A stretch of DNA of 64,000 bases from sequence record NC_028903.1. One strand, 5' to 3'. A model generated the notes under the pieces. It was not told the DNA's origin. It searched no databases and worked only from the letters and a program-made list of their open reading frames with translations. Positions 27,891 through 48,621 of this stretch are shown in pieces. The DNA is from Escherichia phage 172-1. Numbering within the stretch: the stretch's first letter is position 1; each line of letters opens with the position of its first letter. The translations under genes and the position numbers were made by a program.

Positions 27891-28709
27891 TTACCAAGAT
27901 TTGTCTAACCATGTCCAGTCGAACAGGTCTTCCGGAGTCTGACCAACAAAGAGCAGCCGAGCATTCTCAAGCATCTTCTCTTCATCTTCAGTATCGAACT
28001 TCTTATAATACTCCATTCGTACTATATGATACATGGTCCATTTGTCTGTAACACCAGCCAACAACTTAGCTGCTGCTTTCTTCCCTACTCCTTGGCGTCG
28101 AAGCTGAAGCTTACCGCCCCACATAACTTCTTTACGTTCTCCACATCCGGGGATATTATCTGTTCCATCTCCAATCAACATCTGATAGAAGAAGTTTTGC
28201 CATGAAACTAAATCAGATACATAGTGAGGAGGAACTTCTTTCTGCCTTTCTCCACAAGCCCAACGGTAGTGCCATCCGGGAGTTATCAACAAATCTTTGT
28301 CTCTAGTACAGATGATAGTGTTCTTATCTCTACGTTGCCTTTCAGCTAGTGCATCATCAGCCTCTCTCCCAAATACATCTATGTATTCATATTTACCTTT
28401 AATATAATCACCAACATTTTGCCAGTGAAAAGGTCTTTCTCCGGGAGGTCTATTTGCCTTGTAGTCTTGCTGCTTAGCAACATCGAAACGGAAGTTACCA
28501 CCTTCGCTGAAGTAGAACACAACCTTACTGCAACCTGAGCGAGCAATGATAGTATCTATCTTGTACTGAAGTCGTTCAATCATGAAATTGTAATCAACTG
28601 GAACACGTCCTGTGTCAAGGAAAGGATGCTCCTGAGTAAGAGCACCCACTTCATATCGAAGAACGTCAGCATCCACTATAGCTACTTCAGGGAGCTTAAC
28701 GTCTTCCAT
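27891..28709 (-). CDS. 5'-3' exonuclease / flap endonuclease
   Basis: LIGDGTDNIPGCG matches the Pol I 5'-nuclease / FEN signature (GDxxDNIPG). Confidence 0.65.
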   Translation of the reverse strand: MEDVKLPEVAIVDADVLRYEVGALTQEHPFLDTGRVPVDYNFMIERLQYKIDTIIARSGCSKVVFYFSEGGNFRFDVAKQQDYKANRPPGERPFHWQNVGDYIKGKYEYIDVFGREADDALAERQRRDKNTIICTRDKDLLITPGWHYRWACGERQKEVPPHYVSDLVSWQNFFYQMLIGDGTDNIPGCGERKEVMWGGKLQLRRQGVGKKAAAKLLAGVTDKWTMYHIVRMEYYKKFDTEDEEKMLENARLLFVGQTPEDLFDWTWLDKSW

Positions 28710-32624: not shown

Positions 32625-33107
32625 TTAGATAGTTAATTTGTGATCTTCCTCCGCTCTGTTTCTAACAGAGACGGCTTCCTCTAGGGTTGAGAAAGTTCCT
32701 AGGTATTTAGTTTTACCCTTAATGTGGATATTGGCTATGTACTTCCCTCTTGAATTGAGGTATACACCCTTAGCCCCTGATGTGTTGTTAGAGTTCAAAC
32801 CCTTGTTCCAAGAATTATTCTCGTTGTTAACTTCTCTAAGGTTGCCTATGGAATCATTGGAAGGGTTTCGATCAATGTGATCTATTTGATCTTTAGGTAA
32901 AACGCCATTAGCAAAATACCAAATGATGTGGTATCTGTAAATGGATCTTCCTTTCACTCGGATAAGTACTCTTCCATCCTTTTTTGAAGTTCCTGCCTCA
33001 TCGCCCCGCCTGCATTTTGTTCCGTTGTGAATTCTCCAGAACACTTTTCCAGATGATAAATCACAAACAAAGAACTCATCCAGAAGATCTTCTATCATAT
33101 CATGCAA
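32625..33107 (-). mobile_element. HNH-AP2 homing endonuclease
   Basis: IDHIDRNPSNDSIGNLREV (HNH) plus AP2-like DNA-binding segment GKYIANIHIKGKTKYLGTFSTLEEA. Confidence 0.6.
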
Positions 33108-33295
33108 CCATCACATACGAAATCCCCGCTCAGAGATTCTTGTAACAAACGACTTTGTTCATCGGAGACTAATTGATTAACAACTTTCTGTAACTCCAGC
33201 AGTTGATCAAAATCTATATATCCCCCTTCTTCAAGGACATTGGTTTCAATTCCCCATAAAGGTGATGGCATGTTTCCACTTGCTTTAAAAATCAT
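33095..33295 (-). CDS. hypothetical small protein
   Basis: 66-aa ORF with RBS taaggag. Confidence 0.3.
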   Translation of the reverse strand: MIFKASGNMPSPLWGIETNVLEEGGYIDFDQLLELQKVVNQLVSDEQSRLLQESLSGDFVCDGCMI

Positions 33296-33304
33296 TATAT
33301 CTCC

Positions 33305-33448
33305 TTAGCTCCAAGATTTAGCTTTTACTTCAACGTAGGTTTTAACCTCACCTTTCAGTACTTCCTGAGAAGCATTTGCACTTTCTTCAGAGGTGTGCAC
33401 AACGGTGATCTCTTTCTTTCCAATCTTATAAGTGTGAACCCAAATCAT
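33305..33448 (-). CDS. small ORF (47 aa), hypothetical
   Basis: ATGA overlap with the upstream small ORF; not in ORF track. Confidence 0.25.
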   Translation of the reverse strand: MIWVHTYKIGKKEITVVHTSEESANASQEVLKGEVKTYVEVKAKSWS

Positions 33449-33612
33449 TCCTCTTCCTCGTATTCCCAATTTCTTTCATAATATCCAGAGTTGTAGTTTA
33501 GGGCGCATTTCTCAGCCTCTTCTATGTCATCGGTATTTAGGATATTAACCCATCCACCAACTTCATCAAAACCTTCATCTACTTCATTAAACCATACACT
33601 GTACTTTTTCAT
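33445..33612 (-). CDS. small ORF (55 aa), acidic C-terminus
   Basis: ATG overlaps the stop of 33609..34001 (ATGA coupling); reads MKKYSVWFNEVDEGF...; not in ORF track. Confidence 0.3.
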   Translation of the reverse strand: MKKYSVWFNEVDEGFDEVGGWVNILNTDDIEEAEKCALNYNSGYYERNWEYEEEE

Positions 33613-34001
33613 CGAATCACCAGAGGCTCTTCAGAGTACACAGGAGCGGCTATTTCTACAGGAGGTGCTGCCCTAAGGTCGTTGAGTCTTACGCCCTTCA
33701 GCATCCCATCTAGGTGGTCCTTTTTGGGGATTCCAACAGGGAAGTCGTCAATCCAGATATCTACAAAGAAACCTAGTTGTCGACATACATCATCCTTCTG
33801 GACACCATTGCAAAAGATGATAGGAATTTGCAAACACTCTGCATCAATCTTAATGTCGTGATTATCATATCCATTAGGCTCTGCAAAGCGATAAGTTACA
33901 AAACGTACATCATAACCCTTCGCTTGCATTAATGTCACCACAGAGCGCCACAGCTCCTTATCTGAGGTGTAAGTATCATCATAATCTAAACCAATATTCA
34001 T
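33609..34001 (-). CDS. hypothetical protein
   Basis: 130-aa ORF; N-terminal IGLDYDDTY is weakly HAD-like. Confidence 0.4.
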   Translation of the reverse strand: MNIGLDYDDTYTSDKELWRSVVTLMQAKGYDVRFVTYRFAEPNGYDNHDIKIDAECLQIPIIFCNGVQKDDVCRQLGFFVDIWIDDFPVGIPKKDHLDGMLKGVRLNDLRAAPPVEIAAPVYSEEPLVIR

Positions 34002-34234
34002 TTCTAAATCCTTTAGACAAGAAAAGCCGCCCTAAGGCAGCTTCTTATTTAACTATTCACTTTAGCTTCAAGAGTTTCATTTTCAATACTCAAGTCAATC
34101 ACTACACCAGTAAGCTCAACAACTGCTTGGCGAAGGGCATCTTTACCCATAGAGTGTACTTGAGATAAGAAGAAAGCTTTACCTTCTTCAGTGGACAGGG
34201 TTTCTTTTAATTCAGAAGCAGTCATTGATATTCC

Positions 34235-34429
34235 TTATGTTATGTTATAAATTCGCATGATTGTACCGCCATTGGCTTCAATAGCAGCAACCATTTGGTT
34301 TCGTTCTTCATCCGTGTAAACTAACACACTTCTAAACTCACCCGTTGCATCAGTATAAAGGATGTTGTATTTCGGAGGTGGCTTACGGTAGATACCTTCC
34401 ATCATTCTTTCTCCTCTCGTTCTTTCCAC
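34235..34429 (-). CDS. hypothetical small protein
   Basis: 64-aa ORF in the minus block. Confidence 0.3.
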   Translation of the reverse strand: MERTRGERMMEGIYRKPPPKYNILYTDATGEFRSVLVYTDEERNQMVAAIEANGGTIMRIYNIT

Positions 34430-34585
34430 AGTTCAGCAAGTTCTAAATAAAACTCAGCTTCATCAGGACGTCCTTGTTCATTACAGATGGCGCTCTGACG
34501 ATAACACCAATCCGATGGCATCTCTTCCACTTCAATCTCCTTGTTACGAACCAATCAATAAGAATAGTTCATTCGTCTTATTTAT

Positions 34586-34777
34586 TCACTCTACCAACGC
34601 AGGCACTTCTATCCTTTTAACTGTGAATGTCTTGTTTGGAAACTTTCGAACTAACTCTGCTGCTTTGGTTATTGCTAAGTTCTCTGTCTCAAAGATACAC
34701 AGTTGACCATTTAATGCTACAAGAGTGGAGCCACCACTGAAGATGGCCCAAGATTCATAATAACCTTTAACACTCAT
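34586..34777 (-). CDS. hypothetical small protein
   Basis: 63-aa ORF immediately upstream of the polymerase gene. Confidence 0.3.
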   Translation of the reverse strand: MSVKGYYESWAIFSGGSTLVALNGQLCIFETENLAITKAAELVRKFPNKTFTVKRIEVPALVE

Positions 34778-34785
34778 AATTTACC

Positions 34786-36630
34786 TTAGTGCGTATGCAT
34801 CCAGTTGAGTCCAATCTGACAATCAGATGCCAGAGGACATTCCATGTTCAAATACTCACCAGCCTTCTTAACACAAAGCTCGGTGTGCTCTTTGAGTTTC
34901 TGTACATCATTACGATTAACTGAGAACTGGCCCTCATCATGCATATCAATTACCTTAGCACAACGAACTCCATCCTTCTCAATCCACTTGTTAAGGAACA
35001 TCATAGCATATTTCATAACAACAGCACCAGCACATTGCAGGAGAGTGTTAAGTGCTTTATGAACCATAACCTTACCAGTGGCATCTCGTCTCATTGTAAT
35101 CTTACGACCATCAACACCAATCAAGTACCCTTGAGCTGCTTTCTCTGTCATACGATCAATGAGGATTGCAATACATGGGTTCTCTGCCAAGAAACGTGCT
35201 CGCATCACTGAACCTTCATCAGCCCCACCACCTACAATTGAACCAAGCTTAGCATCACCAGCACCATAGTTGAATGCGTAGATAAACGTCTTAGCGTTGT
35301 CACGAGTAGGAAGACCAGCAAGTCTCTGGTTGTGGGAGTGGATATCACCTTCAAGGAGAATATCACGATACATAATAGCAGAAGCTAAACCACGTTCTGC
35401 CAGAGCTTTCTTAGCTGGATTATTCTCTTCTATTGCTTCAGCAAGCATATCCCTACACTCTTTAATGAGGTAGTGTGCGAGCATACGCAATTCTAATCCA
35501 GAACCATCATACCCTAAGAATACTTCTTTACCAGCGGGTATGTAATATTTGTAAGCACCTACAGGTTTGTCTTTCTTCCCCGGCTTACCTTTCTCATAAA
35601 TTACGTTAGTACCTTTTCGTATATAACAACCATCAGGAACAACGTTAGTAATAACGAAAGGACGAGAGTGATCATCATCTGAGTTATAGTCAGACTCAAA
35701 CAAACCGCGACACTCATGACCAAACAAACCACGGGAGGGAATATTAACCACGATACGATGTTTGAATCGAAAAGTCGGAGTAGCGCAGCTGTTAGCTTCT
35801 GCCGAAAGTTTACCATCTTCGCGTTCCTTTGCTATAAGTCCACTGATAAGACCTAGCCTGTGAGCCGCTACAACGCGTCTCTTAAGCAAACTTCCGACAC
35901 TCCCTAGCTCACCCCCTAACCCTTCTTCAAGAGTCTCCTCGAGGTTTGTAGGAGCTGTAGGCCACTTGTTTGAGGTAGCTAGTGCTATCTTAATCTCATC
36001 AAAAGTGATAGGTCTACGTCGGTTAGGATTTAAACCTAAACCAAAAACATAAGCCTTCATGTAGTTCTTAGTTTTAAACCTAAAGTGCTTCTCTAAGAAC
36101 TTTCTGATATCAGCGTCAACCATCTCGGCTGTCTGCTTCTGTTTAGAATTACCTCGCATCCAAGCTGAATACCATGCTTGGTATGTTCCATACTTTCGCA
36201 TATCTTTCTTGATTTCAAAAGTATTCCAAGGTTTCTTTGATACGTTAAACTCTGGAGGAAGAAAACCCTCATCCATAAGGGCTTCTTTAACTCGTGCATC
36301 TTTCGATGGGTCAAAGTCCACGTATTCAACACAGGTGAATGCTCCACCAATGTCCTCTCTCTTAAGTCCAACTCTATCACAATAGGCTTGAGGCCACTTC
36401 TGTAAAGCTCCAGACTTCTTAAATGGCTTCATATAAGTAGAGCCATCTAATCTCATCTTAGGTAAGAGAGGAATTAATTCTTTGTCAATATTAACAATAA
36501 TCTCTTTAAGGAGGTGAACATACCACCGAGCATTTCTTTGGTTGAAACTCACTCCGTGCTTCGCTTGCTTAGAGATTATATCAGCGACAGTCATCTCTGT
36601 CAAAAATGGGAGAGCGTCCGGGTTGCTCAC
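34786..36630 (-). CDS. DNA polymerase, family A polymerase domain
   Basis: motif A GYDGSGLELRMLAHY, motif B RDNAKTFIYAFNYGAGDAKLG, motif C VIDMHDEG; no exonuclease motifs in this ORF. Confidence 0.8.
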   Translation of the reverse strand: MSNPDALPFLTEMTVADIISKQAKHGVSFNQRNARWYVHLLKEIIVNIDKELIPLLPKMRLDGSTYMKPFKKSGALQKWPQAYCDRVGLKREDIGGAFTCVEYVDFDPSKDARVKEALMDEGFLPPEFNVSKKPWNTFEIKKDMRKYGTYQAWYSAWMRGNSKQKQTAEMVDADIRKFLEKHFRFKTKNYMKAYVFGLGLNPNRRRPITFDEIKIALATSNKWPTAPTNLEETLEEGLGGELGSVGSLLKRRVVAAHRLGLISGLIAKEREDGKLSAEANSCATPTFRFKHRIVVNIPSRGLFGHECRGLFESDYNSDDDHSRPFVITNVVPDGCYIRKGTNVIYEKGKPGKKDKPVGAYKYYIPAGKEVFLGYDGSGLELRMLAHYLIKECRDMLAEAIEENNPAKKALAERGLASAIMYRDILLEGDIHSHNQRLAGLPTRDNAKTFIYAFNYGAGDAKLGSIVGGGADEGSVMRARFLAENPCIAILIDRMTEKAAQGYLIGVDGRKITMRRDATGKVMVHKALNTLLQCAGAVVMKYAMMFLNKWIEKDGVRCAKVIDMHDEGQFSVNRNDVQKLKEHTELCVKKAGEYLNMECPLASDCQIGLNWMHTH

Positions 36631-36646
36631 TTTATACTCCTTTAAA

Positions 36647-37069
36647 TTATTGGTAAATCAAATCCGTAAATGCTTGATTGTCTTCTATCACATCTAACAC
36701 GGTAGCTTCATAACTGTAAGCCCTAACCGCCCCGTTAACAACTATCCGAGGAGTAGGTGGAGGTGGTGCATGGTTAGCCCTAGCTTCACGAGGTTGCTCT
36801 CGTACTAAATGAGCCACAACCCTTTGGTTAGCGACTTCTTCTCTTTCTCGAATAGCTCTCTGAATGTAAGCTAACTTCATACCCCAAACTTCTTCAAACT
36901 CTTGAGGGTGTTTATCGCTGATAACTACATACTGACGTTCAGGAATACCAGAGCGAATCTCTGACAAAAGCTCATGGAACAAATCAAGTTCATGTTCAGT
37001 GAGATTCATTTCGATATCATCCCACTTGAGAACTAGGAATCTGTTTTGGTGTCTAGCTGGTAATGGCAT
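36647..37069 (-). CDS. hypothetical protein
   Basis: 140-aa ORF upstream of the polymerase gene. Confidence 0.4.
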   Translation of the reverse strand: MPLPARHQNRFLVLKWDDIEMNLTEHELDLFHELLSEIRSGIPERQYVVISDKHPQEFEEVWGMKLAYIQRAIREREEVANQRVVAHLVREQPREARANHAPPPPTPRIVVNGAVRAYSYEATVLDVIEDNQAFTDLIYQ

Positions 37070-37232
37070 TCTACTCCACCTCTACTCTAACGTAAGTTCT
37101 CTCGCCAACATCATCTTTCCAGACCCATGCCTTGGCATCTTCTTCAGACTTAAAAGCTTTCACAACGCTGTATCCACCTTCCCATTCATCACCGAACCAG
37201 CGCTGTCCTACGTAAACATATTCTTTCATTAT

Positions 37233-37508
37233 TTAACCTTTTGGGAATGGCATTAAAGATTCCATAGCAGATTTAATTTCGCTATTGATTCGAGCATCTC
37301 GATAAGAGATAAACTTACCTTTGCTATCTCGTAACATCACATGGGTTCTAGCTGTTACGTGGGGAAGTAATGTAATACTAGTTGGGATAGTGTCAATCCC
37401 TACAGAAAATTTGTCAATAGTCTTGCTTTCACTTAACAGATAAGACCAAGTTTGCTTCGGATGGTTAGGGTATGTGTCTCGAATTTGAACCATAGCTAAC
37501 TTATTCAT
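37233..37508 (-). CDS. small protein, paralog pair member
   Basis: shares ..TART.V.LR...GKFISY.......LxPFPKG with 37510..37761. Confidence 0.45.
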   Translation of the reverse strand: MNKLAMVQIRDTYPNHPKQTWSYLLSESKTIDKFSVGIDTIPTSITLLPHVTARTHVMLRDSKGKFISYRDARINSEIKSAMESLMPFPKG

Positions 37509-37509
37509 A

Positions 37510-37761
37510 TTAAACTCCTTTAGGGAATGGGATGAGGTTTTCTACTGCAACACGGAACTCTTTCTCTACGTTTTTATTCTTATAAGAAATGAATTTACCA
37601 TCAGCCCCACGGAGGATTACGTTAGTACGAGCTGTTTTTGGGTTATGACCAATCTGGTTTGCAATAATATTAGCAATGCCGTGGTTATTGGTAAATTTCC
37701 ATTTAACCATACGATTGTTAGACATTACATCAATGATATTTACAGATTTTACAATAGACAT
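37510..37761 (-). CDS. small protein, paralog pair member
   Basis: paralog of 37233..37508. Confidence 0.45.
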   Translation of the reverse strand: MSIVKSVNIIDVMSNNRMVKWKFTNNHGIANIIANQIGHNPKTARTNVILRGADGKFISYKNKNVEKEFRVAVENLIPFPKGV

Positions 37762-37795
37762 ATTTATTACCTAAGAAGTTTAATTTGGTTTATAT

Positions 37796-37824
37796 AAAAG
37801 AAAAGGCCACCCATTTGGGTAGCC
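37796..37824 (-). terminator. rho-independent terminator (minus strand)
   Basis: ggctaccc-aaau-gggtggcc + UUUUCUUUU on the minus strand. Confidence 0.5.
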
Positions 37825-37829
37825 TCATA

Positions 37830-38153
37830 TTACGATGAGCTTAAAGCTCCTTTTCGCTTAGCAGCACCAGCTGCTTTTCCAGCTCGATTACCACTTTTGC
37901 CGCCGTTTGAACGGTTTGAGCTGACTGATTCAACACGTAAGTTGCTTGACGCATTAGAGCCTCCAGACTTGACAGCTCGTTTGTGTCCAACATCTTTACC
38001 TCTGACAGCAGCTTTTCCATCGCGCTTTTCAACGATGCGACGTGCACGGTGGCGCTGAGCATCTCCGCTCTTGCTCCCAACGCCTGTCTCACCACGGGCA
38101 ATTGCGGTACGTCTTTCTTGTGCATAATCTCTCTTTCCTACATGATCTGCCAT
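37830..38153 (-). CDS. basic low-complexity protein
   Basis: strong RBS aaggag; T-rich third codon positions like other genes here; Lys/Arg/Gly/Ser-rich. Confidence 0.4.
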   Translation of the reverse strand: MADHVGKRDYAQERRTAIARGETGVGSKSGDAQRHRARRIVEKRDGKAAVRGKDVGHKRAVKSGGSNASSNLRVESVSSNRSNGGKSGNRAGKAAGAAKRKGALSSS

Positions 38154-38209
38154 TTAAAACTCCTTAATATATCAGTGTACACTAAGGAGTATACATTATA
38201 AGTTGCTGT

Positions 38210-38947
38210 TTAAGCTTTCTTTTCCATTGCTTTAACAATAGCTTTACAGAAACCAGAACGAACAATGTCATCTGATTCGCCGTCTACAATCTCAGCGAAC
38301 TCATACAGATCATGTTCATCAATAAAGTTAGTAGCCCAAGTAAGACCACTCTCACGACCACGCATATCATGCTGGTTAGTGTCACCCATGCAGAACAATT
38401 GAGAGGTTTCTCCCAATCGAGTCATGATTGAGAAGGCTTCATCTTTAGTGGTGTTCTGGAACTCATCTACGATAACAATAGCATCGTTGAAAGAACGACC
38501 ACGGAGATACTCCAGAGGTACGAACTCAATATTACTGTTACCGAGCTGGCATTCATAGAACCCTTTACCATATCGCTGAGTAATAACATCAATGATAGGC
38601 ATCAAATATGGTTCAAACTTCTCACGCATCCCTCCCGGAAGCAACCCAAGAGAATTACCCATGCCGACCGAAGGGCGACTCAGGATAATCTTCTGAATCT
38701 TACCACTCTTCAGTGCATCGATAACCGTGGAAGTGATTACAAAGGTCTTACCACAGCCCGCAGGAGCGTCTGTGAACACAACTTGTTTAGTCTTGATAGC
38801 ATTGAGCAGTTCAGACTGGAACTGGTTCTGAGGGACTACAGGCTTTGCTAAAACCACCTCTTCAAACTCGCGCTTACCCTTACGAGTGACAAGTACTTCC
38901 CGACGAAGGTCTTTCCGTGATTCTTTCCGTGATTGACGACGACTCAT
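38210..38947 (-). CDS. phoH: PhoH-like ATPase
   Basis: DAPAGCGKTFV Walker A and conserved PhoH core (ILSRPSVGMG..LGLLPGG, IVIVDEFQNTT). Confidence 0.7.
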   Translation of the reverse strand: MSRRQSRKESRKDLRREVLVTRKGKREFEEVVLAKPVVPQNQFQSELLNAIKTKQVVFTDAPAGCGKTFVITSTVIDALKSGKIQKIILSRPSVGMGNSLGLLPGGMREKFEPYLMPIIDVITQRYGKGFYECQLGNSNIEFVPLEYLRGRSFNDAIVIVDEFQNTTKDEAFSIMTRLGETSQLFCMGDTNQHDMRGRESGLTWATNFIDEHDLYEFAEIVDGESDDIVRSGFCKAIVKAMEKKA

Positions 38948-39156
38948 TTACGCTCTCCAATTTCTTCGTAATGACATTCAGTAGTTAAACAATCTTTACA
39001 GATTGCTGTATAAACCCTGACGTTAGTAAATCGTTTGTTCTTCCCTTTGGTTGGAGAGCCTTTGGCAAGCTCTCTGATAACCTTGTTACTTAAATGAAGG
39101 TTTGTCCCTTCACATCTAGAGCACTTCACCACAATGTCCATTCGGTAAGAGACCAC
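38944..39156 (-). CDS. zinc-ribbon small protein
   Basis: CSRCEG ... CKDCLTTEC Cys pairs. Confidence 0.35.
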   Translation of the reverse strand: MVSYRMDIVVKCSRCEGTNLHLSNKVIRELAKGSPTKGKNKRFTNVRVYTAICKDCLTTECHYEEIGERK

Positions 39157-39326
39157 AGAGAGTCACCTATGTGGGCATTGTCATTCCTGATGAGGTCTTT
39201 GATTTTATCAACATCAGTTAAGTGAGTCACATTCAAAATATCCTCAACATCTGGGGCATATTTAAATATGGCAACAATACTGTTGTGATCTTCAGCATAT
39301 CTTTCTAGAACATAAACTACGCTCAT
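39126..39326 (-). CDS. hypothetical small protein
   Basis: 66-aa ORF. Confidence 0.3.
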   Translation of the reverse strand: MSVVYVLERYAEDHNSIVAIFKYAPDVEDILNVTHLTDVDKIKDLIRNDNAHIGDSLWSLTEWTLW

Positions 39327-39646
39327 GCGAAGTTAACCTCTTTATGAAGTCTGTAAACAGCTGTCGCCATACAAGCAACAGCTTCGTTATGTGGGAGATG
39401 CATCCCTGTAGAACCATCCCAATCTTTGAACTCATTGTCAAAGACTCCGGTAGGCTCTGGATACAAGGCTTGCAACTCAACCAAATCGTTAGCAACTTGT
39501 TGCCATTTATCATCAGACCAGATAGGGTCATCCAACCAGTAATACAAATAGGAATGGATGATCAATTGCCTTCTGTGCCGATTGATTACTTCAGCGGGAC
39601 TTATCTCACTTCCATTTGAAGTCCTAAATGTATTACTGTCAATCAT
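39323..39646 (-). CDS. hypothetical protein
   Basis: 107-aa ORF. Confidence 0.35.
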   Translation of the reverse strand: MIDSNTFRTSNGSEISPAEVINRHRRQLIIHSYLYYWLDDPIWSDDKWQQVANDLVELQALYPEPTGVFDNEFKDWDGSTGMHLPHNEAVACMATAVYRLHKEVNFA

Positions 39647-39891
39647 TTCACAACCTTAAATTTGAATGTTGTTGGGTGATAATAATGCAACCTGTTAATG
39701 GTGTGCTTTGTTTCAAGATATATCCTACAAGAGTGACACATCACATGATTCAGACCAGTTACAGGATTAGGTTTAAAGTTGGCGATAGGCTTCTCTTTCT
39801 TACAGAAGCTACAGACTTTCTTTTCCATCTTTTCTCCAGTGGTCAACGAACTGCTGAAACACTTTACGGTCAAATGTGAAATTACGAGCAA
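39643..39891 (-). CDS. zinc-finger small protein
   Basis: CSFCKK ... CHSCR motif; true start may be the internal Met. Confidence 0.35.
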   Translation of the reverse strand: MLVISHLTVKCFSSSLTTGEKMEKKVCSFCKKEKPIANFKPNPVTGLNHVMCHSCRIYLETKHTINRLHYYHPTTFKFKVVK

Positions 39892-40042
39892 TTCCGCATT
39901 CTCTAAAAGTGGCAGGCATATAATCTACATCACCTTCAGATGTATGACCATAGACTTGAATAAGTTTCTTAATCTTATCCTTCTCTCTTCGAGGAAGCAT
40001 TCTAAATGCCTCCTGAATATCTGTAATATGTTTTATCTTCAT
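39809..40042 (-). CDS. hypothetical small protein
   Basis: 77-aa ORF. Confidence 0.3.
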   Translation of the reverse strand: MKIKHITDIQEAFRMLPRREKDKIKKLIQVYGHTSEGDVDYMPATFRECGIARNFTFDRKVFQQFVDHWRKDGKESL

Positions 40043-40188
40043 CAGAAATTCCTGCTAATCCTCTGAGTTGTGGGAACAGCAATATTCACATACTCCACAA
40101 CAAGGGCAAATTTCTACACTTGGGTCATATGCATCATCAACTGTCATCCCACACTTGGTGCAGAACACATCATCATCTTCTTCCAATA

Positions 40189-40845
40189 TTAATTCTCCAA
40201 AGTTTTCTTCAGAGCTGCCCACGAGATTGGGTAGAGTTTAGCCATCTCTTCATCCAGAGATTGAGCAAACACTCGAACTTCATACTGAGCATGGGAGGAT
40301 AGTCGCTGACGACACAACTCAAACCAGCCATACAAAGAACCAGTCCACACCCACTCAGTGATCATTCCCTGAGGAAGAACAAATCGGGCTTGTTCTGGTG
40401 CAACGAACTCAATCAACTTGTCATATGCTGCTAGAGAAGCTTCATATGCATCGTTAATCAACATTAATGCTTCAGCTCGCTCTCCATTGATGAGTTGAAC
40501 CCCTGAACCTGCATGGAGGTCCGAAGGTCTCGCAAAAATCTCTTTAGGGATGAAGACTTCAACTGCTCCGTCTTTATACCTCCGGGACATTTCGTTCCAC
40601 GAAAACCCAATTTGGTGCTTGCCCAACTGTCTCGCAATTGCGATAGGTGCTTTGCATCGGAAACTGACTTGTGGGTGTCGGAATGGAGTAACATGCTTCT
40701 CTCTTGCGAGGAAGTTGATGAGACGTTCATCACGTTCATTTAAATCACCTTCACGGGTTACGCCAAAGGAAACTCGAGCTGCGTTTACTACGCTACGATC
40801 ACTTCCCATAGCTTCGATTAATGTTGCTTGTAATTGTTCATTCAT
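40189..40845 (-). CDS. thyX: flavin-dependent thymidylate synthase
   Basis: AARVSFG ... HVTPFRHPQVSF ... ARQLGKHQIGFSWNEMSRRY resembles the ThyX signature region (RHR-x7-S..SxRY). Confidence 0.7.
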   Translation of the reverse strand: MNEQLQATLIEAMGSDRSVVNAARVSFGVTREGDLNERDERLINFLAREKHVTPFRHPQVSFRCKAPIAIARQLGKHQIGFSWNEMSRRYKDGAVEVFIPKEIFARPSDLHAGSGVQLINGERAEALMLINDAYEASLAAYDKLIEFVAPEQARFVLPQGMITEWVWTGSLYGWFELCRQRLSSHAQYEVRVFAQSLDEEMAKLYPISWAALKKTLEN

Positions 40846-40860
40846 CCGTGAATTTCCTTA

Positions 40861-41070
40861 TTAATATTCTTTTACATAATAAACCACTAAGGTTCCCATC
40901 TCTGACAATGTTGATTTATGTAAGCTTACTTTACTATAAATCTTTGGGGCCATCTTAAGAGCCTTCTTAAAACGGCGAGCATCTTTACGAGTAGCAAAGT
41001 GCTCTGTAACAGGTATAGCCGGGTCTTGGTAGAGGTAATATACCACCGTCCAATATTTTTTCATAATCAA
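40861..41070 (-). CDS. small protein, paralog family B
   Basis: MKK.W.V ... TRK.ARRFKK ... VYY pattern shared with 42925, 43134, 43343. Confidence 0.4.
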   Translation of the reverse strand: MIMKKYWTVVYYLYQDPAIPVTEHFATRKDARRFKKALKMAPKIYSKVSLHKSTLSEMGTLVVYYVKEY

Positions 41071-41393
41071 ACACCTAGGGCAGTAGTTAAGAATGCTTTC
41101 AGGTTTGCTTCGGTCTGCATACCAGAGAGACTATAGTGTGCACCACTATTACGGTCAGGTACAACGAAAGCAGGGATGCTTCTTACACCATACTTAACAG
41201 CTTGTTCACGACCATCACCTTCAAGGATGTTAATCTCTTCTACTTCTACATCGAACTCCTTAACAACCTTCTCAAAGGTAGGAGCCATTGCTTTACATGG
41301 AGCACACTGATCACTATAAAACTTAATCACTTTAGACATTCTATTCCTTGTTAATAAACAGGTTGATATGACGTTGGGTAGCAGGAACAACAA
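41067..41393 (-). CDS. thioredoxin-like protein
   Basis: CAPC active-site motif in a 108-aa thioredoxin-sized ORF. Confidence 0.6.
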   Translation of the reverse strand: MLFLLPNVISTCLLTRNRMSKVIKFYSDQCAPCKAMAPTFEKVVKEFDVEVEEINILEGDGREQAVKYGVRSIPAFVVPDRNSGAHYSLSGMQTEANLKAFLTTALGV

Positions 41394-41529
41394 TAAAAGA
41401 TTTATACTGACCTTTTGCTAAGTCATGAGCAATCTTCTTTGTCTGACCAAGACCCATCACACAGCCACTAACAATAATGGCGTGTGCTTGCAACTCTTCA
41501 GGGAGTTTTAGTTTCATTCTTCAGGTTCC

Positions 41530-41715
41530 TTACAGCATAGCAAGAATGATAATAAGAGGTAATGTTATAGCGAAATTAATAAGAACAGCGCTGCCTAGCT
41601 TGATAGCTTTAACATCCTCTTCTGATGGGTTTTCTTTAATTGCTAAATTTCGAGCTTTATATATAACAGTACCAATTATTAACGACCACACGGCCCACAC
41701 AATCAGTGAAATCAT
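41530..41715 (-). CDS. small two-TM membrane protein
   Basis: 61 aa, two hydrophobic helices; paralog of the adjacent unlisted ORF. Confidence 0.4.
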   Translation of the reverse strand: MISLIVWAVWSLIIGTVIYKARNLAIKENPSEEDVKAIKLGSAVLINFAITLPLIIILAML

Positions 41716-41724
41716 ATCAAACCC

Positions 41725-41904
41725 TTATGCAGTCAGGAGGTGAAGCAGGAATGGGATAACAACAGCTACGACAACCATGATGGTTGATGCTGTTTGAATC
41801 TCACCTTTCTTGTCAGGAGTTTCTTCAATAAGCTTGCCAGAAGCCCAATAGATACCACCACCAATAAAGACAGCCCAAATACCCCATACGATTGCTGATA
41901 ACAT
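41725..41904 (-). CDS. small two-TM membrane protein (paralog, unlisted)
   Basis: 59-aa ORF MLSAIVWGIWAVFIGGGIYWASGKLIEETPDKKGEIQTASTIMVVVAVVIPFLLHLLTA, similar to 41530..41715. Confidence 0.3.
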   Translation of the reverse strand: MLSAIVWGIWAVFIGGGIYWASGKLIEETPDKKGEIQTASTIMVVVAVVIPFLLHLLTA

Positions 41905-41965
41905 ATATCTATATCCTTATAAATAAGTTCGCCCCACCTCGGGTTAGGAGACAGGGCGGAGGTTT

Positions 41966-42565
41966 TTAGTAAGACACATCGCCACTTGAGTGGGACATGT
42001 TGCTCTTGACGAAGTAGCAATACTTGCCAAGACCTTCATTAATTTCTTGAAGCATACTCTGATCAACTGGATAAGTGGCTAAATCACCATCAAACTCATC
42101 CATCTTCTCAATAATACACATCAAGGTCATGCACATATCAGAGAGCATACCGTCCATATCTAGGTCAGCATTACCCTCTGAGAACCAAGCATGGGAGAGA
42201 TAATTGGCTGCTGTGGCGTCCACTTTAACACAGTGGTAACGCATACGTTCAGCAATACGATCTCCTACTTGTCGTGCGTAATCTTCCAGCTCATCAAACA
42301 TACCATGAACACCCTGAAATCCTGCACCAGAGACGTTCCAATGGTAGTTTTTAGCTTTGATATGCAAGAGTTCCATGTTAGCTTGTAAGCAGCTCAGGAT
42401 GTGTTCTAGGCTGTTTCCACTAATCATACCCTGCATTGTTTCAAGGCGAGAGATTGAAAGCTCGGACCGGTCTAACATATTGTATTCGACACGACCAATA
42501 TCAGGTAAATCAAAGACATTCTTATGCATTTGGGTTATCTCCATCAAGTTCAACTGAATTAGCAA
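41966..42565 (-). CDS. Dps-like ferritin-fold protein
   Basis: NYHWNVSGAGFQGVHGMFDELEDYARQVGDRIAERM matches the Dps ferroxidase-site region. Confidence 0.6.
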   Translation of the reverse strand: MLIQLNLMEITQMHKNVFDLPDIGRVEYNMLDRSELSISRLETMQGMISGNSLEHILSCLQANMELLHIKAKNYHWNVSGAGFQGVHGMFDELEDYARQVGDRIAERMRYHCVKVDATAANYLSHAWFSEGNADLDMDGMLSDMCMTLMCIIEKMDEFDGDLATYPVDQSMLQEINEGLGKYCYFVKSNMSHSSGDVSY

Positions 42566-42851
42566 CGTTACGTTCGATGTTTGCCATCACTTGCTGCGTT
42601 ATGACAATACAGTTCTGTGGGTCTACTGACTTAGAACGCCCCATTTCAGGGTCATACACCTTAACTCGCTTAGCAGTTGAACCTGTAACCTGAAGAACCT
42701 TCAACAGATATCCCTGATTACCAATAGACCAAGCAACAACATCACGATTCTTGATAAAGCGACCAAGCATATCACGATGATAAAACTGTTGCATCACCTT
42801 GGATTTTGTAATCTCTTCAGTGGGCGGGGCCACTTTACTCAAATCTAACAT
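42522..42851 (-). CDS. hypothetical protein
   Basis: 109-aa ORF; AAATGTATA motif about 41 nt upstream (42892-42900, reverse). Confidence 0.35.
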   Translation of the reverse strand: MLDLSKVAPPTEEITKSKVMQQFYHRDMLGRFIKNRDVVAWSIGNQGYLLKVLQVTGSTAKRVKVYDPEMGRSKSVDPQNCIVITQQVMANIERNVANSVELDGDNPNA

Positions 42852-42924
42852 AACTCTCTCCTGTAAAAATACAAATTCTTATTGTACTCTATATACATTT
42901 GAGAGTTACCATATCTACTACCAA

Positions 42925-43134
42925 TCAGTAGTAAACATTCCGAGATAGCATACAAGTACTTTCTGAGAATTCAACCCAACGGTGTATGCTAACATGCTCA
43001 ACCGTACCGACCAGAGCTTTCATATTCTTTTTAGCAATACGAGCCTCTTTGCGAGTGTTAAACAGTTTGATATTATCTTTTCCCAAGTGTTGCTCGTGAT
43101 TCCAAACAACACGAATAGCCCACATCTTTTTCAT
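42925..43134 (-). CDS. small protein, paralog family B
   Basis: tandem paralog (..TRKEARIAKKNMK ... VYY). Confidence 0.45.
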   Translation of the reverse strand: MKKMWAIRVVWNHEQHLGKDNIKLFNTRKEARIAKKNMKALVGTVEHVSIHRWVEFSESTCMLSRNVYY

Positions 43135-43343
43135 CAGTAGTGTACCTTTCCGCTGATATAAACACGACCAGAGGAATACTCTCTGGCCTTATGAATACTG
43201 ATGCTCTTGATCATATCTATATTAAACATGGACTTTTTAAAATCTCGAGCTTGTTGGCGAGTAGGTAGTGCAGTCATAGTCATACCGCCTGATGCCCACT
43301 TAATCTTTGCTAACCAAAACTGTCTCATAGTGATTGGTCTCAT
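43134..43343 (-). CDS. small protein, paralog family B
   Basis: tandem paralog (..TRQQARDFKKSM ... VHY). Confidence 0.45.
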   Translation of the reverse strand: MRPITMRQFWLAKIKWASGGMTMTALPTRQQARDFKKSMFNIDMIKSISIHKAREYSSGRVYISGKVHY

Positions 43344-43540
43344 TAATAATAAACCTTGCTGTTGGCAAAAAGAGCACCTTCGTTATTCACAATAGCTTTT
43401 CCTATTGTAACCTTATTGAGTCTAAAAGTAGACTTGTATTGGTTTTTGACCCTACGGGCGTGTTCTCGAGTATTAACAAAATCTACAGCTACTAACTCTC
43501 CAGTCGTGTTATCATGTACACGAACAATCCACTTTTTCAT
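43343..43540 (-). CDS. small protein, paralog family B
   Basis: tandem paralog (..TREHARRVKNQYK ... VYY). Confidence 0.45.
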   Translation of the reverse strand: MKKWIVRVHDNTTGELVAVDFVNTREHARRVKNQYKSTFRLNKVTIGKAIVNNEGALFANSKVYY

Positions 43541-43743
43541 TTTACTAAACCCTTCATAAAGTTATAAAGATCATTAGAGGCTTTACCCCATTCAAGGTGC
43601 TTCTTATCCATATAGCTCTTACATGCTTCTTTACTACTTTCGACGCATATATCAAATTGATGACATGCTCGACCAAATGTCATAGCTTTTAATTGAACCT
43701 CGGTAGTCAAACCTTTCAGTTCTTGGAACTCTTCTTCAGTCAT
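43537..43743 (-). CDS. hypothetical small protein
   Basis: 68-aa ORF. Confidence 0.35.
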   Translation of the reverse strand: MTEEEFQELKGLTTEVQLKAMTFGRACHQFDICVESSKEACKSYMDKKHLEWGKASNDLYNFMKGLVK

Positions 43744-44277
43744 TTACACACCCTTAGATGCAACAACACCTTCAGAGTTATTATAACGACCCTTCACTGC
43801 ATAGGAATGTTCCCCTGCATGAGAGTGCTCAAACATCACCATCTGACCAACACGCATACCAGCACGAACTCGTAAGCTATGATGCTTGGTTACGTTGTGG
43901 AATTCAAACGTCAGCTTACTGCTATTAAATCCAGCATCAGCCCATCCAGCATGTAGGTGGTTCAAACCACAACGAGCCATAGATGAACGAAGAACAAACA
44001 GGCTTGAGATATTATCTGGAAGATTAAACTCCTCCATGGAGTGAGCCAAGAAGAACTGACCCGGAGTGATAACCAAACCCTCTTCAGGAATCTTTACTTC
44101 CTTCCACTGAAGATTTTCTTTCGCATCAATATCAACGATGCCATCAGCCTGTTCTTCAACAAGGATAGTATCACCAATACGGATATCCACACTAGCAGCG
44201 TTAACATACTTATGCTCCGCATCCAGATAGCCATTGTCAATTACATCGTGCAGTTCAACACTTCCTAGTAAACTCAT
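43744..44277 (-). CDS. dCTP deaminase / dUTPase-family protein
   Basis: VDIRIGD ... ITPGQFFLAHSMEEFNLP ... LRSSMARCGLNH ... FEFHN ... GMRVGQMVMFEH parallels E. coli Dcd. Confidence 0.7.
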   Translation of the reverse strand: MSLLGSVELHDVIDNGYLDAEHKYVNAASVDIRIGDTILVEEQADGIVDIDAKENLQWKEVKIPEEGLVITPGQFFLAHSMEEFNLPDNISSLFVLRSSMARCGLNHLHAGWADAGFNSSKLTFEFHNVTKHHSLRVRAGMRVGQMVMFEHSHAGEHSYAVKGRYNNSEGVVASKGV

Positions 44278-44286
44278 TCTTATTCC

Positions 44287-45699
44287 TTAGTTATTTGTTT
44301 CCATGTCAAAAGAGATTCCACGACCCGCTTCATCGGCAAACCGAACTGTACGGGTTTGAGGCTGCAATACTTCAGGGTTATCAGCAACAAAGCGATCAGC
44401 GAGACTGCGGCTGACGGTCTCAGCTAATTCACCATGAGAAGGGATATTAAGATCGGCGAGATTATCAACCACATCTTGGGCCACGTCTTCATCAGTCCAT
44501 ACAGCCCTAACAGGTGCGTTGAAACTCTGACCAGAGAACTGGTGACGGCTAACAGTCAAACCATTTGATTGACCATTAGAACGTCTAGACAACCACTGCT
44601 CAAATGAATCGCCAGTAACACCAAGAGCTTCTTCAAAAGATGTTCTACGAGTAGAGCTTAGATTTCGTGCTTCGTTTGCTCGACGTCTTGCAGGGGCTAC
44701 AAACACCCCTTCAACTGCATTGTGCCGATTAGGTTCATCTTCTCGACCAAGGAGATCTCCTCCTGTATTAGTTGTTAAGTTTGTCAACCCTTCAGACCAA
44801 TATGCACGAATCTGGCTAGAGCCATGAACACTTGACATTAACTGAATCTCTTCGTAAGGTATTCCAAAGAATAGACTCATGTCTCGGTTAACACAGTATT
44901 GAGCACTTGTTGTATCCTCAATAAGAGAAACCTGACCTAATCCATTAACCAGATGACTAACTGGCTGAGGTGTAGGAAGGTATCGAGTTTGGGCCATATA
45001 TTGATATGCAACAGATGGAGCTGAGAATCTTAACACTTGTGAATTAGGCCACTTTTTGTGAACGTATCTGATTTCACGACTAGAAACAACCACAGGGCAA
45101 GGAGCGGTCATAGCTAAATATCCATGAGGAGTCATGAATAGGTTGTCAAGAGTCATCGCACCACGGCACATCATAGGAAAATTATCCAATACCTCTTCAA
45201 TAGAAGTAGGATAATTAAACATGAATTGAATGCGGGTTCCATTCCACTGAAACTCAATAATATCAGTGAATGTTAATTGAGAACCCCCAGCATATGATTC
45301 GTTTGTAGCTTCAGCAAGAAGGGATGCATACTCGATATCTTGTGATTCAAGCCACTCTTTCACATTGCTTTCAATCTCTCGTCCAAGAGCTTGCCAATGA
45401 TCAACTGTAGTGAAAGTATTTTGAGTCCCTGGCGTCTGTCCTCTGACAACGAAGATATCAATATCGTGAGGTGCTATGTTATTAAGCACGGCATCACGAA
45501 CAGCCCCACCAGTAATGATAGGGCAAATGCCGTCTGGAATCAAGTTGTTGTTAATCAACTGTTCAATGAAGTGACGACCAACAGTGATATCAGGTTGTTG
45601 AGCAACCTTATCTTCAATTCGGTTAATCGGGATAACAATCATTTTACATTTTCCAATATAATGAAGGTGGGTCGTAAGGGTCAAATCCCGTGAGTTCAC
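44287..45699 (-). CDS. nucleotidyltransferase, CCA-adding enzyme / poly(A) polymerase-like head domain
   Basis: [23 protein letters not shown] matches the class II NTase signature GGxVRD...DxD. Confidence 0.55.
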
Positions 45700-46198
45700 A
45701 CAAGTATTTATAAACCTTAACGGTTAAGTTAACGTCCTGTTCACAGTAAGTAAACATATCTTCAGTGAAAGCATCCCATGCTTCCTCTTGCTCACCGTAG
45801 TCTCCTTTAAGTTCCTCTAAGAACTCACCCCATTGCTTCAAACCATGACCTCTTGGGCCATGTCTAGGGTCACCTTTCGGATACTCAGGACTGTCACCAA
45901 TACGGTCAGGTTTAAGATATCGACTAAGACACAAGGTGTCGAAGACGTTAAAACGATAGTCGATCAGATTGGGATACATCTTCTTCAGAGCACAAAGGTC
46001 GAAGTCAATAATATTATGACCTACGAGCACATCAGCTTCTGTAAGTTTACGAATCCCATCTTCAATTTGGTGAGGCCGATAGCCCCACCTTTCACCAGTT
46101 TCAACATCGAAGATGTAAATACACCACACTTTAGTTATGTCATCGTACAGTGCATTACTCTCGATATCAAATGCAAACACTTTCTTTTTCTTTACCAC
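45644..46198 (-). CDS. 3'-5' exonuclease (DEDDy, DNA polymerase proofreading-like)
   Basis: Exo I FAFDIES, Exo II HNIIDFD, Exo III YCEQD. Confidence 0.65.
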
Positions 46199-47982
46199 GG
46201 TGAAGCTCCATCTGCTTGATTGACGAGAGAAGCTGCATCCTCTCCGTTAGTCAAAACGAATGGATTATCTTCATCAACTTCAAAGTCTTCCCTTTCTACA
46301 AGTCTACCGGTTTCGCTGATATACTTAGTATAACAGACACCCGTCTGACCATAGTTACGTTCTTTCAGTAATCGAATGACTGAGAGGTTCTTAGCTAAGC
46401 CGTCAGCTTGCTTATCACGCTCAAAGCCAATGATACACTGACACCAACGCATAAGAGAACGAGAGCCAGTGAACTGTACTTCACGTACCTGTCCACCTTC
46501 TTCGTGAGGAGCACCACCTGCCGGAGCATTAAGGTGAGATAGCACGAAAGCGGTAAAGTCTAATTCTTTACACATACCAGCAAGCTCGGAAGCAATCTTA
46601 CTGATTTCAGTGTTAATCTCTGAAGGTGTTAAATGAGATACCAGAGCGGTAATGTTATCAAGAATGATGAACTTACACTGGTTTTCAACTACCCAGAAAC
46701 GGATACACTGTTTAATATCTTCCCATTCGTTCTGCCCAAAGTTGTCATACAAGAAGAATTTGTCTGCATAACGAAGTGCTTCATTACGCAAATCCTCCTC
46801 GTCATATTCAACATCGGGTCGGTGGAAAGGAATTGATGCTGACTTACCAGCGATGTTCTTAACAGACATGCCTACCTTCTCTTCCAAGAAGAAGCCACCC
46901 CCATTAAAGCCATGCTCTAAGCACAGATGAGCAACCAGTTCGTGAGCAATTAGTGTTTTACCACTACCTACACCACCACCGATGGCTACTACCTCTCCCC
47001 ATCGAATACCGAAGGTCATCTCATTAAGAGTTTTCCACGGATATGGAATACCCCACTCCGCTTTCTTCAGAGCATCATCAAGGCAATCAAAGATTGTTAC
47101 AGCACCAGCAGGAGATTCCCGCTTTGCTGAATACTTGAGAATGTTGAATAACTCTTGACCACGACCAGACAGAAGCATGTCATTCGCATCCTTAATCTCT
47201 TTCTCCACACCGTTGTATGGGAAAGTTCCTTTAGGAATACGAGCAAACTTGACATGAGGGAATAAAGAACGACCTTTTGTTAAAGCTATCTCACCTGCAT
47301 CGTCATTGTCCATGCAGAGCACAACCTCCTCAAAACCATTTACGAAGTCTCGATTACGAGACAACACAGAAGAGATTGAACCTGCACCGAACGGTAAAGA
47401 AACACATGCTGGCTTAATATTTGTTGCATTTGTAAAAGCTGTAAGGACATGGAAACCAGACATACAAGATAGCGGGTCTTCAAAAATAAACAGCTTCTTG
47501 TTGTACACATCTCCACGTTGAGCTTGTGCCATACCAAATAAGTCTGCTTCTTTCACACTGCCAACGTAATAAAACTTCTTACTATCTAGCAGCTTAACCT
47601 CGTAACCAACAATGTTTCCATCACGTTCACGAGGAAAGAAGTAGCTGTCTGGAGTCTGACCATCAGTCTGACTTAGACCAATGCGACACTCAAAACGCTC
47701 TGATACAGCTTTAGGGATTAAACGTCGAGTAAGTTCACCCTGAGGAAGCTCTAAGCAATCATCTAAGACTTCTCTCAATTCTTCAGGGGATAACTCTTTC
47801 TTCTCGTTTGGAGTGGGTGTAGTGCCCTTTTCGAACACTTCGTAATTCCCACAACGGTTACAACTTCCCCACTCCTCACCTGTCTCTTCGTTACGGAAGA
47901 GAATCATGTGGTTGTGGGTTTTATCACGACCATGAGAGATACATTCCTTACAACCTGTGTCTCCCAAAATGATCTTTGACAT
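46192..47982 (-). CDS. DNA primase-helicase
   Basis: N-terminal Cys4 zinc ribbon (CKEC...CNRC), central primase region, C-terminal Walker [10 protein letters not shown] helicase. Confidence 0.8.
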
Positions 47983-48008
47983 GCTCTTCCTCCTTGGAAT
48001 CCTTGAGC

Positions 48009-48212
48009 TTAGTAGAACGAACGAATTTCATCCCACACTTGTTCCTGTTCTTTCCTATAAAAAGAAAGTTGGGTCTTGAACATCTCCACTGATGATTCAA
48101 AGTTTTTAGATTGTGCAGCTTCAACGAAACGTTCATGTCGGTTGATTTTGCACCGTAGCATTAAATACTTGGCTTCAAGTCTCCGAAGAGCCTGTCTTTT
48201 CTCAAGATTCAC
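48009..48212 (-). CDS. hypothetical small protein
   Basis: 67-aa ORF ending 27 nt upstream of the primase start. Confidence 0.3.
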   Translation of the reverse strand: MNLEKRQALRRLEAKYLMLRCKINRHERFVEAAQSKNFESSVEMFKTQLSFYRKEQEQVWDEIRSFY

Positions 48213-48621
48213 TTTTCAGATACTCTGACCAGTCGCCAGATTCAACCAGAACGTCTTGTTCTTCGTCAATGTGATAAATCCAAGCGATAACAGTTTCACC
48301 TGAGTCCAGCTTAACGGCAATCTGGGTGCGTTGATAGAAGCTATCTTCAGGGCTACGTTTGTTGTAACCTTCCAGTCGGTCATATGGACCTTCCAGACCT
48401 GCTTTGTCAGTAGCAAACACTTCTACACGAACAGGCTTATTGTTATTGCTGTGTGCGAGAGAGATGCTTGGGAAGTAGGAACCACCATAACGGAACAGAT
48501 CGAAGTTGTCTTCAGTCCAACCTTCACCGATTGACTTAGCACCAGCTCGGTCATTAACTAAATAGTTAGCTTGACCACGACGAAGAGAACCATAAGTTGC
48601 TACGTAAATTACTTCTGACAT
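48202..48621 (-). CDS. gamma-glutamyl cyclotransferase-like (GGCT/AIG2 family) protein
   Basis: YVATYGSLRRGQANY matches the GGCT-fold YGSL motif. Confidence 0.5.
   Translation of the reverse strand: MSEVIYVATYGSLRRGQANYLVNDRAGAKSIGEGWTEDNFDLFRYGGSYFPSISLAHSNNNKPVRVEVFATDKAGLEGPYDRLEGYNKRSPEDSFYQRTQIAVKLDSGETVIAWIYHIDEEQDVLVESGDWSEYLKSES

Follow-up and report, generated by a model that had tools for sequence, protein, structure and literature searches.

In Escherichia phage 172-1 (NC_028903.1), a T7-type family A DNA polymerase is divided between two minus-strand genes, one encoding a polymerase domain of 614 amino acids (aa) and the other a predicted stand-alone 3'-5' exonuclease of 184 aa. 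The 64,000-nucleotide (nt) stretch of this genome that was analyzed is referred to as the window, and feature coordinates within it are listed in Table 1. The arrangement is best explained by an ancient fission of the gene for a T7-type family A replicative polymerase, which would have fallen in the linker between the proofreading and polymerase domains. A preliminary description of the window had reported the two open reading frames (ORFs) as lying about 9 kb apart, and had suggested that the proteins either assemble in trans or that the exonuclease has an independent role. Both ORFs are real, and 9,013 nt separate the exonuclease stop from the polymerase start. The split itself is real, was rightly read, and is already on record for the phiEco32 group; the additions made here are modest and comprise the position of the cut at residue level, the finding of no vestigial exonuclease domain, an apparent single origin, and a graded series of gap sizes.

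Identity of the two proteins

The 614-aa protein is a polymerase-domain-only member of the T7-like family A DNA polymerases. Its sole Pfam match was to DNA_pol_A (residues 361-611; 80.9 bits, gathering cut-off 34.3), and a phmmer search of PDB sequences aligned it to residues 496-704 of T7 gp5 (E 1e-32), with weaker colinear pieces reaching back to T7 residue 295. The AlphaFold2 model of the protein (predicted local distance difference test score, pLDDT, 92.2; predicted template modeling score, pTM, 0.82) was compared with solved structures using Foldseek, and ranks 1-27 were all T7 DNA polymerase, with E-values down to 5e-26. The family A motifs A, B, and C named in the preliminary description were located by MAFFT alignment with T7 gp5. 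Residues D375 and E380 of motif A correspond to T7 D475 and E480, residues R443, K447, Y451, and Y455 of motif B to T7 R518, K522, Y526, and Y530, and H564-D565-E566 of motif C to T7 H653-D654-E655. The position of dideoxynucleotide (ddNTP) discrimination is occupied by a tyrosine, as it is by Y526 in T7, and the C-terminal H614 aligns with T7 H704. Across 69 homologues, the motif A, B, and C residues were invariant or at least 90% conserved.

Assignment to the polymerase-domain-only class follows from the N-terminal part of the protein. No PF01612 match was obtained in the Pfam scan, a hidden Markov model (HMM) built from stand-alone exonucleases did not match the protein, residues 1-370 had no Pfam match when E-values up to 10 were admitted, and residue 12 is already aligned at T7 E217. 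The AlphaFold2 model begins with a pair of long helices that make up the base of the thumb, and no beta-alpha-beta RNase H-like sheet or domain is present there. The absence of Exo motifs from this ORF, as first described, was thus upheld by Pfam, the model, and the exonuclease HMM. The possibility that the first 360 aa hold the remnant of an exonuclease domain was considered and rejected, the residues in question being aligned to the T7 thumb (217-413) and to a helical insertion.

For both halves the closest solved structure is T7 gp5, which shares their catalytic residues and C-terminal histidine and whose gene has the same place downstream of a gp4-type primase/helicase gene. T7 gp5 is one thioredoxin-dependent chain of 704 aa, whereas the present system consists of two chains of 184 and 614 aa. 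The loop equivalent to the T7 thioredoxin-binding loop (~262-337) has the same place in the polymerase and about half the T7 length. A thumb-region insertion of ~100 aa (polymerase residues ~130-243; 35902-36243, minus strand), mostly helical and confidently modeled, is found neither in T7 gp5 nor in a fused marine relative, and the 545-aa LUZ24-like polymerases are, judged by length, without most of it; possibly it serves as an extra docking surface. Two further insertions flank motif A, and the insertions account for the excess in length of the 614-aa protein over the T7 polymerase domain.

The 184-aa protein is predicted to be a DEDDy 3'-5' exonuclease of the PolA proofreading type. It matched Pfam DNA_pol_A_exo1 with 35.5 bits (gathering cut-off 23.6), and in a phmmer search of all PDB sequences (cut-off E<=1) it matched only T7 gp5, over residues 3-182 (E 1e-10). 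Its AlphaFold2 model had a pLDDT of 95, and the top 27 Foldseek matches in the PDB were T7 DNA polymerase, followed by the apicoplast polymerase (apPOL) and DpoZ PolA. The motifs FDIES, HNIIDFD, and YCEQD reported beforehand are present in the translation. MAFFT alignment paired the catalytic residues D11, E13, D67, Y151, and D155 with T7 D5, E7, D65, Y170, and D174, with Exo II represented by N62...D67. All five were invariant in 50 stand-alone exonuclease homologues, down to 34% identity, which argues that the protein is under selection as an enzyme.

Motif III, structure, and HMMER matches place the 184-aa protein among the proofreading domains of polymerases. They do not place it with RNase T or oligoribonuclease (Orn), which would have spoken against the preliminary description. 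Motif III has the DEDDy form YxxxD (Y151xxxD155) and not the HxxxxD of DEDDh enzymes. The Pfam scan gave no RNase_T match at E<=0.01, and neither RNase T nor Orn structures were among the top 50 Foldseek matches of the model. When 1.84 billion representatives were scanned exhaustively with HMMER, the exonuclease gave 2,604 matches. Among the best 150 of these, 82 were at least 560 aa long, the long ones being aligned at or near the N-terminus, and 34 were of 243 aa or less; each of the six long matches that were checked against Pfam carried DNA_pol_A after the exonuclease match. A tblastn search of 50,697 phage records matched 2,062 of them, and nearly all annotated cases in 60 rows sampled across the ranking fell under genes called DNA polymerase.

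As judged from sequence, the 614-aa and 184-aa ORFs are the two halves of one ancestral T7-type gene, because their alignments to single fused polymerases are colinear and do not overlap. The clearest case was P0169, a marine relative of 621 aa in which the two domains are fused. Exonuclease residues 10-166 aligned with P0169 residues 6-157 (37% identity, E 3e-32) and polymerase residues 12-614 with P0169 residues 173-621, end to end, and the two proteins were arranged likewise on T7 gp5. Residue 12 of the polymerase therefore falls after the exonuclease domain of both references, and the protein begins at the T7 equivalent of ~206-217. The cut is placed in the inter-domain linker since the alignments leave only ~18 residues after the last exonuclease helix and 11 before the first polymerase-domain residue; the domain boundaries were in this way borne out by the comparison with T7 gp5 that had been proposed as a check. 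The sequence matches that identify the two ORFs and the named genes between them are far beyond chance. One genome thus holds an exonuclease-only and a polymerase-only ORF that together are colinear to a fused T7-like PolA.

The two proteins stay separate chains. The GTG start of the exonuclease gene overlaps the stop of the helicase gene (GTGGTAA), with GGAG 7 nt upstream, and the gene has its own TAA stop; the GTG start of the polymerase gene is preceded at 6 nt by an AAGGAG Shine-Dalgarno sequence. Joining of the halves by a split intein or by RNA trans-splicing would have parallels, since phage polymerase genes are known to harbor split inteins and group I introns in some cases and a metagenomic relative has a group I intron within its polymerase gene. 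However, the residues at the junction leave no room for intein fragments, Pfam scans of both ORFs matched no intein family and the pair does not show the features of a split intein, and in an Rfam scan of positions 30000-50000 no family, group I introns included, reached its gathering score. Mass spectrometry of phage SU10 detected a polymerase product of 69 kDa (PMC4281155), which, with the separate translation signals, also speaks against joining. That the split is an artefact of assembly or annotation, or a sign of pseudogene decay, is opposed by the presence of the arrangement, with catalytic residues intact, in about 100 independently sequenced genomes. This whole group of explanations was given next to no weight. 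Two further candidates were rejected: the presence within the gap of a structured RNA such as a group I intron, on the basis of the same Rfam scan, and a helicase-exonuclease fusion produced by -1 frameshifting, as no slippery heptamer precedes the TAA and the exonuclease has its own GGAG and GTG.

Distribution and history of the split

The 13 kb spanning both ORFs is 97.9% identical at the nucleotide level to Escherichia phage NJ01 and 92-97% identical to dozens of phiEco32-like coliphages (Kuravirus, Gordonclarkvirinae). The same genes, in the same order and with the same spacing, are found in the Kuravirus phages phiEco32 (phi32_53 and a separate exonuclease), NJ01, SU10, SGF2, and YF01, and the SGF2 polymerase protein is 99% identical to the 614-aa protein; nothing of substance differs between the present system and these relatives. 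The exonuclease was present at >=60% identity in 96 phage records and the 5' region of the polymerase gene in 97, and the two genes co-occur throughout the phiEco32-like group (PMC9965538). Both ORFs carry the annotation 'DNA polymerase' in SGF2 and SU10, and the phiEco32 RefSeq record notes that phi32_53 'lacks 5'-3' and 3'-5' exonuclease domains'. The split was also reported in the LUZ24 group in a 2012 paper, which credits the observation to the 2008 description of phiEco32 (PMC3517423), and a 2023 paper describes it as common to the whole phiEco32-like group (PMC9965538). The local value of the present result is mainly correct annotation, both ORFs belonging to one replicative polymerase yet being left uncalled in the NJ01 record.

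A comparable fission at the linker of a T7-like PolA was described for S-SBP1-like cyanopodoviruses by Czernecki et al. (Nucleic Acids Research, NAR, 2023), who proposed a non-covalent complex of the exonuclease and polymerase (PMC10201439). Linker fission is shared with the present system, as is a shortening of the thioredoxin-binding region or its equivalent loop (PMC10201439). The cyanophage genes are adjacent and overlapping as the result of a recent 1-nt frameshift, whereas the genes studied here are 9 kb apart and their fission is old, being common to Kuravirus, Crifsvirus, Bruynoghevirus, and many metagenomic lineages. The two fissions appear to be independent. The splitting of exonuclease and polymerase in T7-like PolAs is presented in the cyanophage paper as observed 'for the first time' (PMC10201439), a claim of priority that overlooks the 2012 paper (PMC3517423) and the note in the phiEco32 RefSeq record.

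The order helicase, exonuclease, gap, and polymerase is conserved in the related genomes, and the size of the gap is graded. It measured 8 nt in the marine contig L010, 1.4 kb in the metagenomic contig L009, 1.9 kb in Bruynoghevirus DL54, 3.2 kb in the metagenomic contig L008, 7.7 kb in Crifsvirus A24, 9.0 kb in the window, and >10 kb in the metagenomic contig L011. In T7, the ICP3-like phage JSF32, and the marine contig L006, one fused gene is found at the same position. The LUZ24-like phages (Bruynoghevirus), in which the genes are annotated as 'DNA polymerase part I' and 'part II', fall in the same split clade in the tree described below; the short gap of DL54 holds only 7 small ORFs, and its polymerase has 545 aa.

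When polymerase homologues were scanned with the exonuclease HMM, an exonuclease domain was found in only 12 of 125. A neighbor-joining tree was built from 440 well-aligned columns, with T7 and ICP3 as the outgroup and with S-SBP1 left out. In this tree, 93 exonuclease-less polymerases formed one clade, sister to 10 fused marine sequences; because the tree is without support values (no bootstrap), a single origin of the split clade is suggestive only. One old fission, followed by gene accretion at the cut, is the simplest reading, and the graded series of gaps in one clade represents a small evolutionary addition.

The intron-bearing relative mentioned above is a 77-kb metagenomic Kuravirus-like contig (L016), in which a group I intron at 4354-4617 interrupts the polymerase gene after ~codon 451 (Rfam RF00028, 102 bits, E 2.6e-27). 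This intron explains the 'polymerase' fragments of 437-463 aa among the homologues (P0065-P0068 and others). The polymerase gene of the present phage is uninterrupted by an intron.

Proposed association of the halves, and gene expression

Since the fission, both halves have kept every catalytic residue, and they are expressed as independent proteins. The exonuclease gene would have retained its ancestral place beside the primase/helicase gene, and the cut site would have accumulated nucleotide-metabolism and small genes, up to 9 kb in this lineage. The exonuclease and polymerase would re-associate non-covalently through the ancestral inter-domain interface to give a two-subunit proofreading polymerase, which would act alongside the gp4-like primase/helicase at the replisome, the phage thioredoxin perhaps taking part as well. 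Non-covalent reassembly, with association of the two proteins and proofreading within the complex, was considered the likeliest mechanism, at a probability of roughly 0.7, because the interface is intact on both sides, the two genes co-occur, and the AlphaFold2 model of the exonuclease-polymerase complex in the cyanophage split superposes on an unsplit polymerase (PMC10201439). In E. coli Pol III (alpha and epsilon) and archaeal PolD (DP1/DP2), the polymerase and its proofreading nuclease are likewise separate polypeptides. Those families are unrelated to family A, epsilon being a DEDDh nuclease and DP1 a phosphoesterase. The analogy to two-subunit proofreading polymerases has also been drawn for the cyanophage system (PMC10201439).

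Alternatively, the exonuclease could be free-standing and form no stable complex with the polymerase, acting in intermolecular proofreading, in which mismatched 3' ends would be removed once the polymerase has dissociated, or in another task at DNA 3' ends, such as recombination, repair, or breakdown of host DNA. In E. coli Pol I, the exonuclease and polymerase domains each fold and remain active when isolated, and the Klenow fragment can proofread intermolecularly. In the window, 9 kb separates the two genes, whose transcription classes may differ, and the exonuclease gene overlaps with the gene for the primase/helicase and not with that for the polymerase, which suggests translational coupling to the helicase. 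Adjacency to the helicase is, however, the ancestral gene order, the succession of helicase, exonuclease, and polymerase being that of T7 genes 4 and 5 (with synteny in A24, DL54, JSF32, T7, and metagenomic contigs). A free-standing role is further opposed by the clean linker cut, which leaves the whole ancestral interface on both sides, by the co-occurrence of the genes throughout the clade, by the spacing of only 8 nt in the basal-looking marine contig L010, and by the published model of the analogous cyanophage split, which predicts a T7-like complex (PMC10201439). On this evidence, an exonuclease working apart from the polymerase was judged unlikely, although it is the main rival explanation.

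Several points weigh against non-covalent reassembly. A search of the literature for biochemical work on split PolA enzymes found none, and the tree is limited as stated above. Others concern expression. Middle/late promoters of the phage-sigma (gp36) type have AATGTATA as their core motif, and both the motif and its positions have been described for phiEco32 and SU10 (PMC4281155; PMC8948821). Seven matches were found in the window against 2.2 expected, and none of 100 shuffles reached seven. The copies at 42892 and 38190 each lie in a short gap between minus-strand ORFs, with the exonuclease gene upstream and the polymerase gene downstream of both, so that the regulation of the two genes may differ. 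The minus-strand copies are located as expected from the middle promoters of SU10, a phage in which the exonuclease and helicase genes were placed in the 'early' block (CDS, coding sequences, 69-125) and the polymerase gene in the 'middle' block (CDS 25-68) (PMC4281155). In the paper on phage 7-11, gp79, encoded upstream of the exonuclease and helicase genes, is called a middle gene product (PMC8948821); the sources disagree on the temporal class boundaries for the exonuclease gene. Differing regulation of the two genes would fit a non-stoichiometric or independent role of the exonuclease.

A more specific form of the free-standing alternative combines these points. Instead of being a constitutive subunit, the exonuclease would be a proofreader under separate regulation, made with the primase/helicase from upstream promoters, the polymerase would be boosted later from the phage-sigma promoters, and the fission site would be a long-lived accretion point for nucleotide-metabolism genes, from 8 nt to >10 kb. 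This proposal, too, was judged unlikely. If it were true, the ratio of exonuclease to polymerase, and hence replication fidelity or 3'-end processing, would change during infection.

A perfect sigma-70 consensus promoter sequence (TTGACA, 17 nt, TATAAT, with the extended -10 TG) was located at 36575-36603 on the minus strand, within the first 60 nt of the polymerase ORF. No other perfect match occurs in the window, and none of 100 shuffles gave one. The sequence lies downstream of the GTG start and of Met13, so a transcript that began there would be too short to code for the whole polymerase. phiEco32 and SGF2 have an identical sequence, and the more distant phages 4E8 and ECBP2 retain only its TGATATAAT part; this part also encodes the conserved polymerase residues A-D-I-I.

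Split family A polymerases provide a natural test of whether the polymerase domain structurally requires the exonuclease domain, and they are a possible source of naturally exonuclease-minus polymerases for biotechnology. The question is already in print for the phiEco32 group (2012, 2023) and the cyanophages (2023), and therefore no new question is added here.

Gene neighborhood and content of the gap

The features that were located in the window are collected in Table 1. From ~27 kb onward, every gene in the window points leftward, and the GC skew changes sign accordingly.

Table 1. Features of the window relevant to the split polymerase
Feature	Position	Strand	Basis
Polymerase-domain gene, 614 aa	34786..36630	-	Pfam PF00476; PDB phmmer; AlphaFold2/Foldseek; alignments to P0169 and T7 gp5
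Stand-alone DEDDy 3'-5' exonuclease gene (predicted), 184 aa	45644..46198	-	Pfam PF01612; phmmer; AlphaFold2/Foldseek; homologous to T7 gp5 3-193
Block between the halves, 9,013 nt	36631..45643	-	Pfam; annotations of SGF2, NJ01, and SU10; paralogue BLAST
T7 gp4-type primase/helicase, directly upstream of the exonuclease gene, 7-nt overlap	46192..47982	-	Pfam DnaB_C, Toprim_2
Nucleotidyltransferase-like protein, 451 aa, ATG 1 nt after the exonuclease stop	44287-45642	-	
Phage thioredoxin, CAPC active site, probable ATG at 41339	41067..41339	-	Pfam Thioredoxin, 2e-13
FEN-like 5'-3' exonuclease, comparable to T7 gene 6	27891..28709	-	Pfam 5_3_exonuc_N, E 6.5e-6, below gathering score
AATGTATA core, phage-sigma (gp36)-type middle/late promoter motif	42892..42899	-	Motif search
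AATGTATA core, second copy in the gap	38190..38197	-	Motif search
All AATGTATA positions, plus strand	5306, 16939, 22173, 31701	+	Motif search
All AATGTATA positions, minus strand	31628, 38190, 42892	-	Motif search

The block between the halves contains genes for a CCA-adding-like nucleotidyltransferase, a dCTP deaminase, a Dps/ferritin-like protein, a thioredoxin, ThyX, a LigA Ia domain, and PhoH, together with many small ORFs. The earlier count of about 20 intervening genes was fair, 26 minus-strand ORFs being found mechanically in this block of the window and 21 and 23 CDS being annotated in SGF2 and SU10, respectively, and the genes it had named (dCTP deaminase, ThyX, thioredoxin, a ferritin/Dps-like protein, and PhoH) were confirmed by Pfam. 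The pairing of T7 gp5 with E. coli thioredoxin makes the phage thioredoxin a candidate processivity partner of the polymerase, and a partnership of this kind has been hypothesized in print for phage Privateer (PMC7881722). The 5'-3' exonuclease of the phiEco32-like group has been described as separately encoded (PMC9965538).

The 451-aa nucleotidyltransferase-like protein resembles the head domain of CCA-adding enzymes and poly(A) polymerases over its N-terminal ~140 aa (PolyA_pol, E 0.0033, below the Pfam cut-off), and its C-terminal ~300 aa gave no Pfam match. Since this gene begins immediately after the exonuclease stop, and since PF01612 includes RNase D as well, the exonuclease could be imagined to act on RNA with the nucleotidyltransferase, as an RNase D/T-like trimmer in the repair of tRNA 3' ends. 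The nearest relatives of the exonuclease in sequence and structure are, however, the exonuclease domains of T7-type polymerases and not RNase D or RNase T. The nucleotidyltransferase gene is found in Kuravirus, but Crifsvirus A24, Bruynoghevirus DL54, and metagenomic relatives have the exonuclease gene without it alongside, and a role in tRNA repair is for this reason very improbable.

The 107-aa protein encoded at 39323-39646 (minus strand) corresponds to domain Ia, the NAD+-binding part of NAD-dependent DNA ligase, standing alone (Pfam Nlig-Ia, E 2.7e-35). No adenylation or OB domain accompanies it, and its annotation in SGF2 and SU10 is 'NAD-dependent DNA ligase'. Paralogous genes were identified within the gap by BLAST, all on the minus strand. 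The products of 37233-37508 and 37510-37761 are 55% identical over 40 aa, and those of 41530-41715 and 41725-41904, which are hydrophobic, membrane-like sequences, are 33% identical. A third pair is formed by 42925-43134 and 43134-43343, the former of which is also matched by the distant ORF 40861-41070. These three local pairs or families are consistent with growth of the gap in place by duplication.

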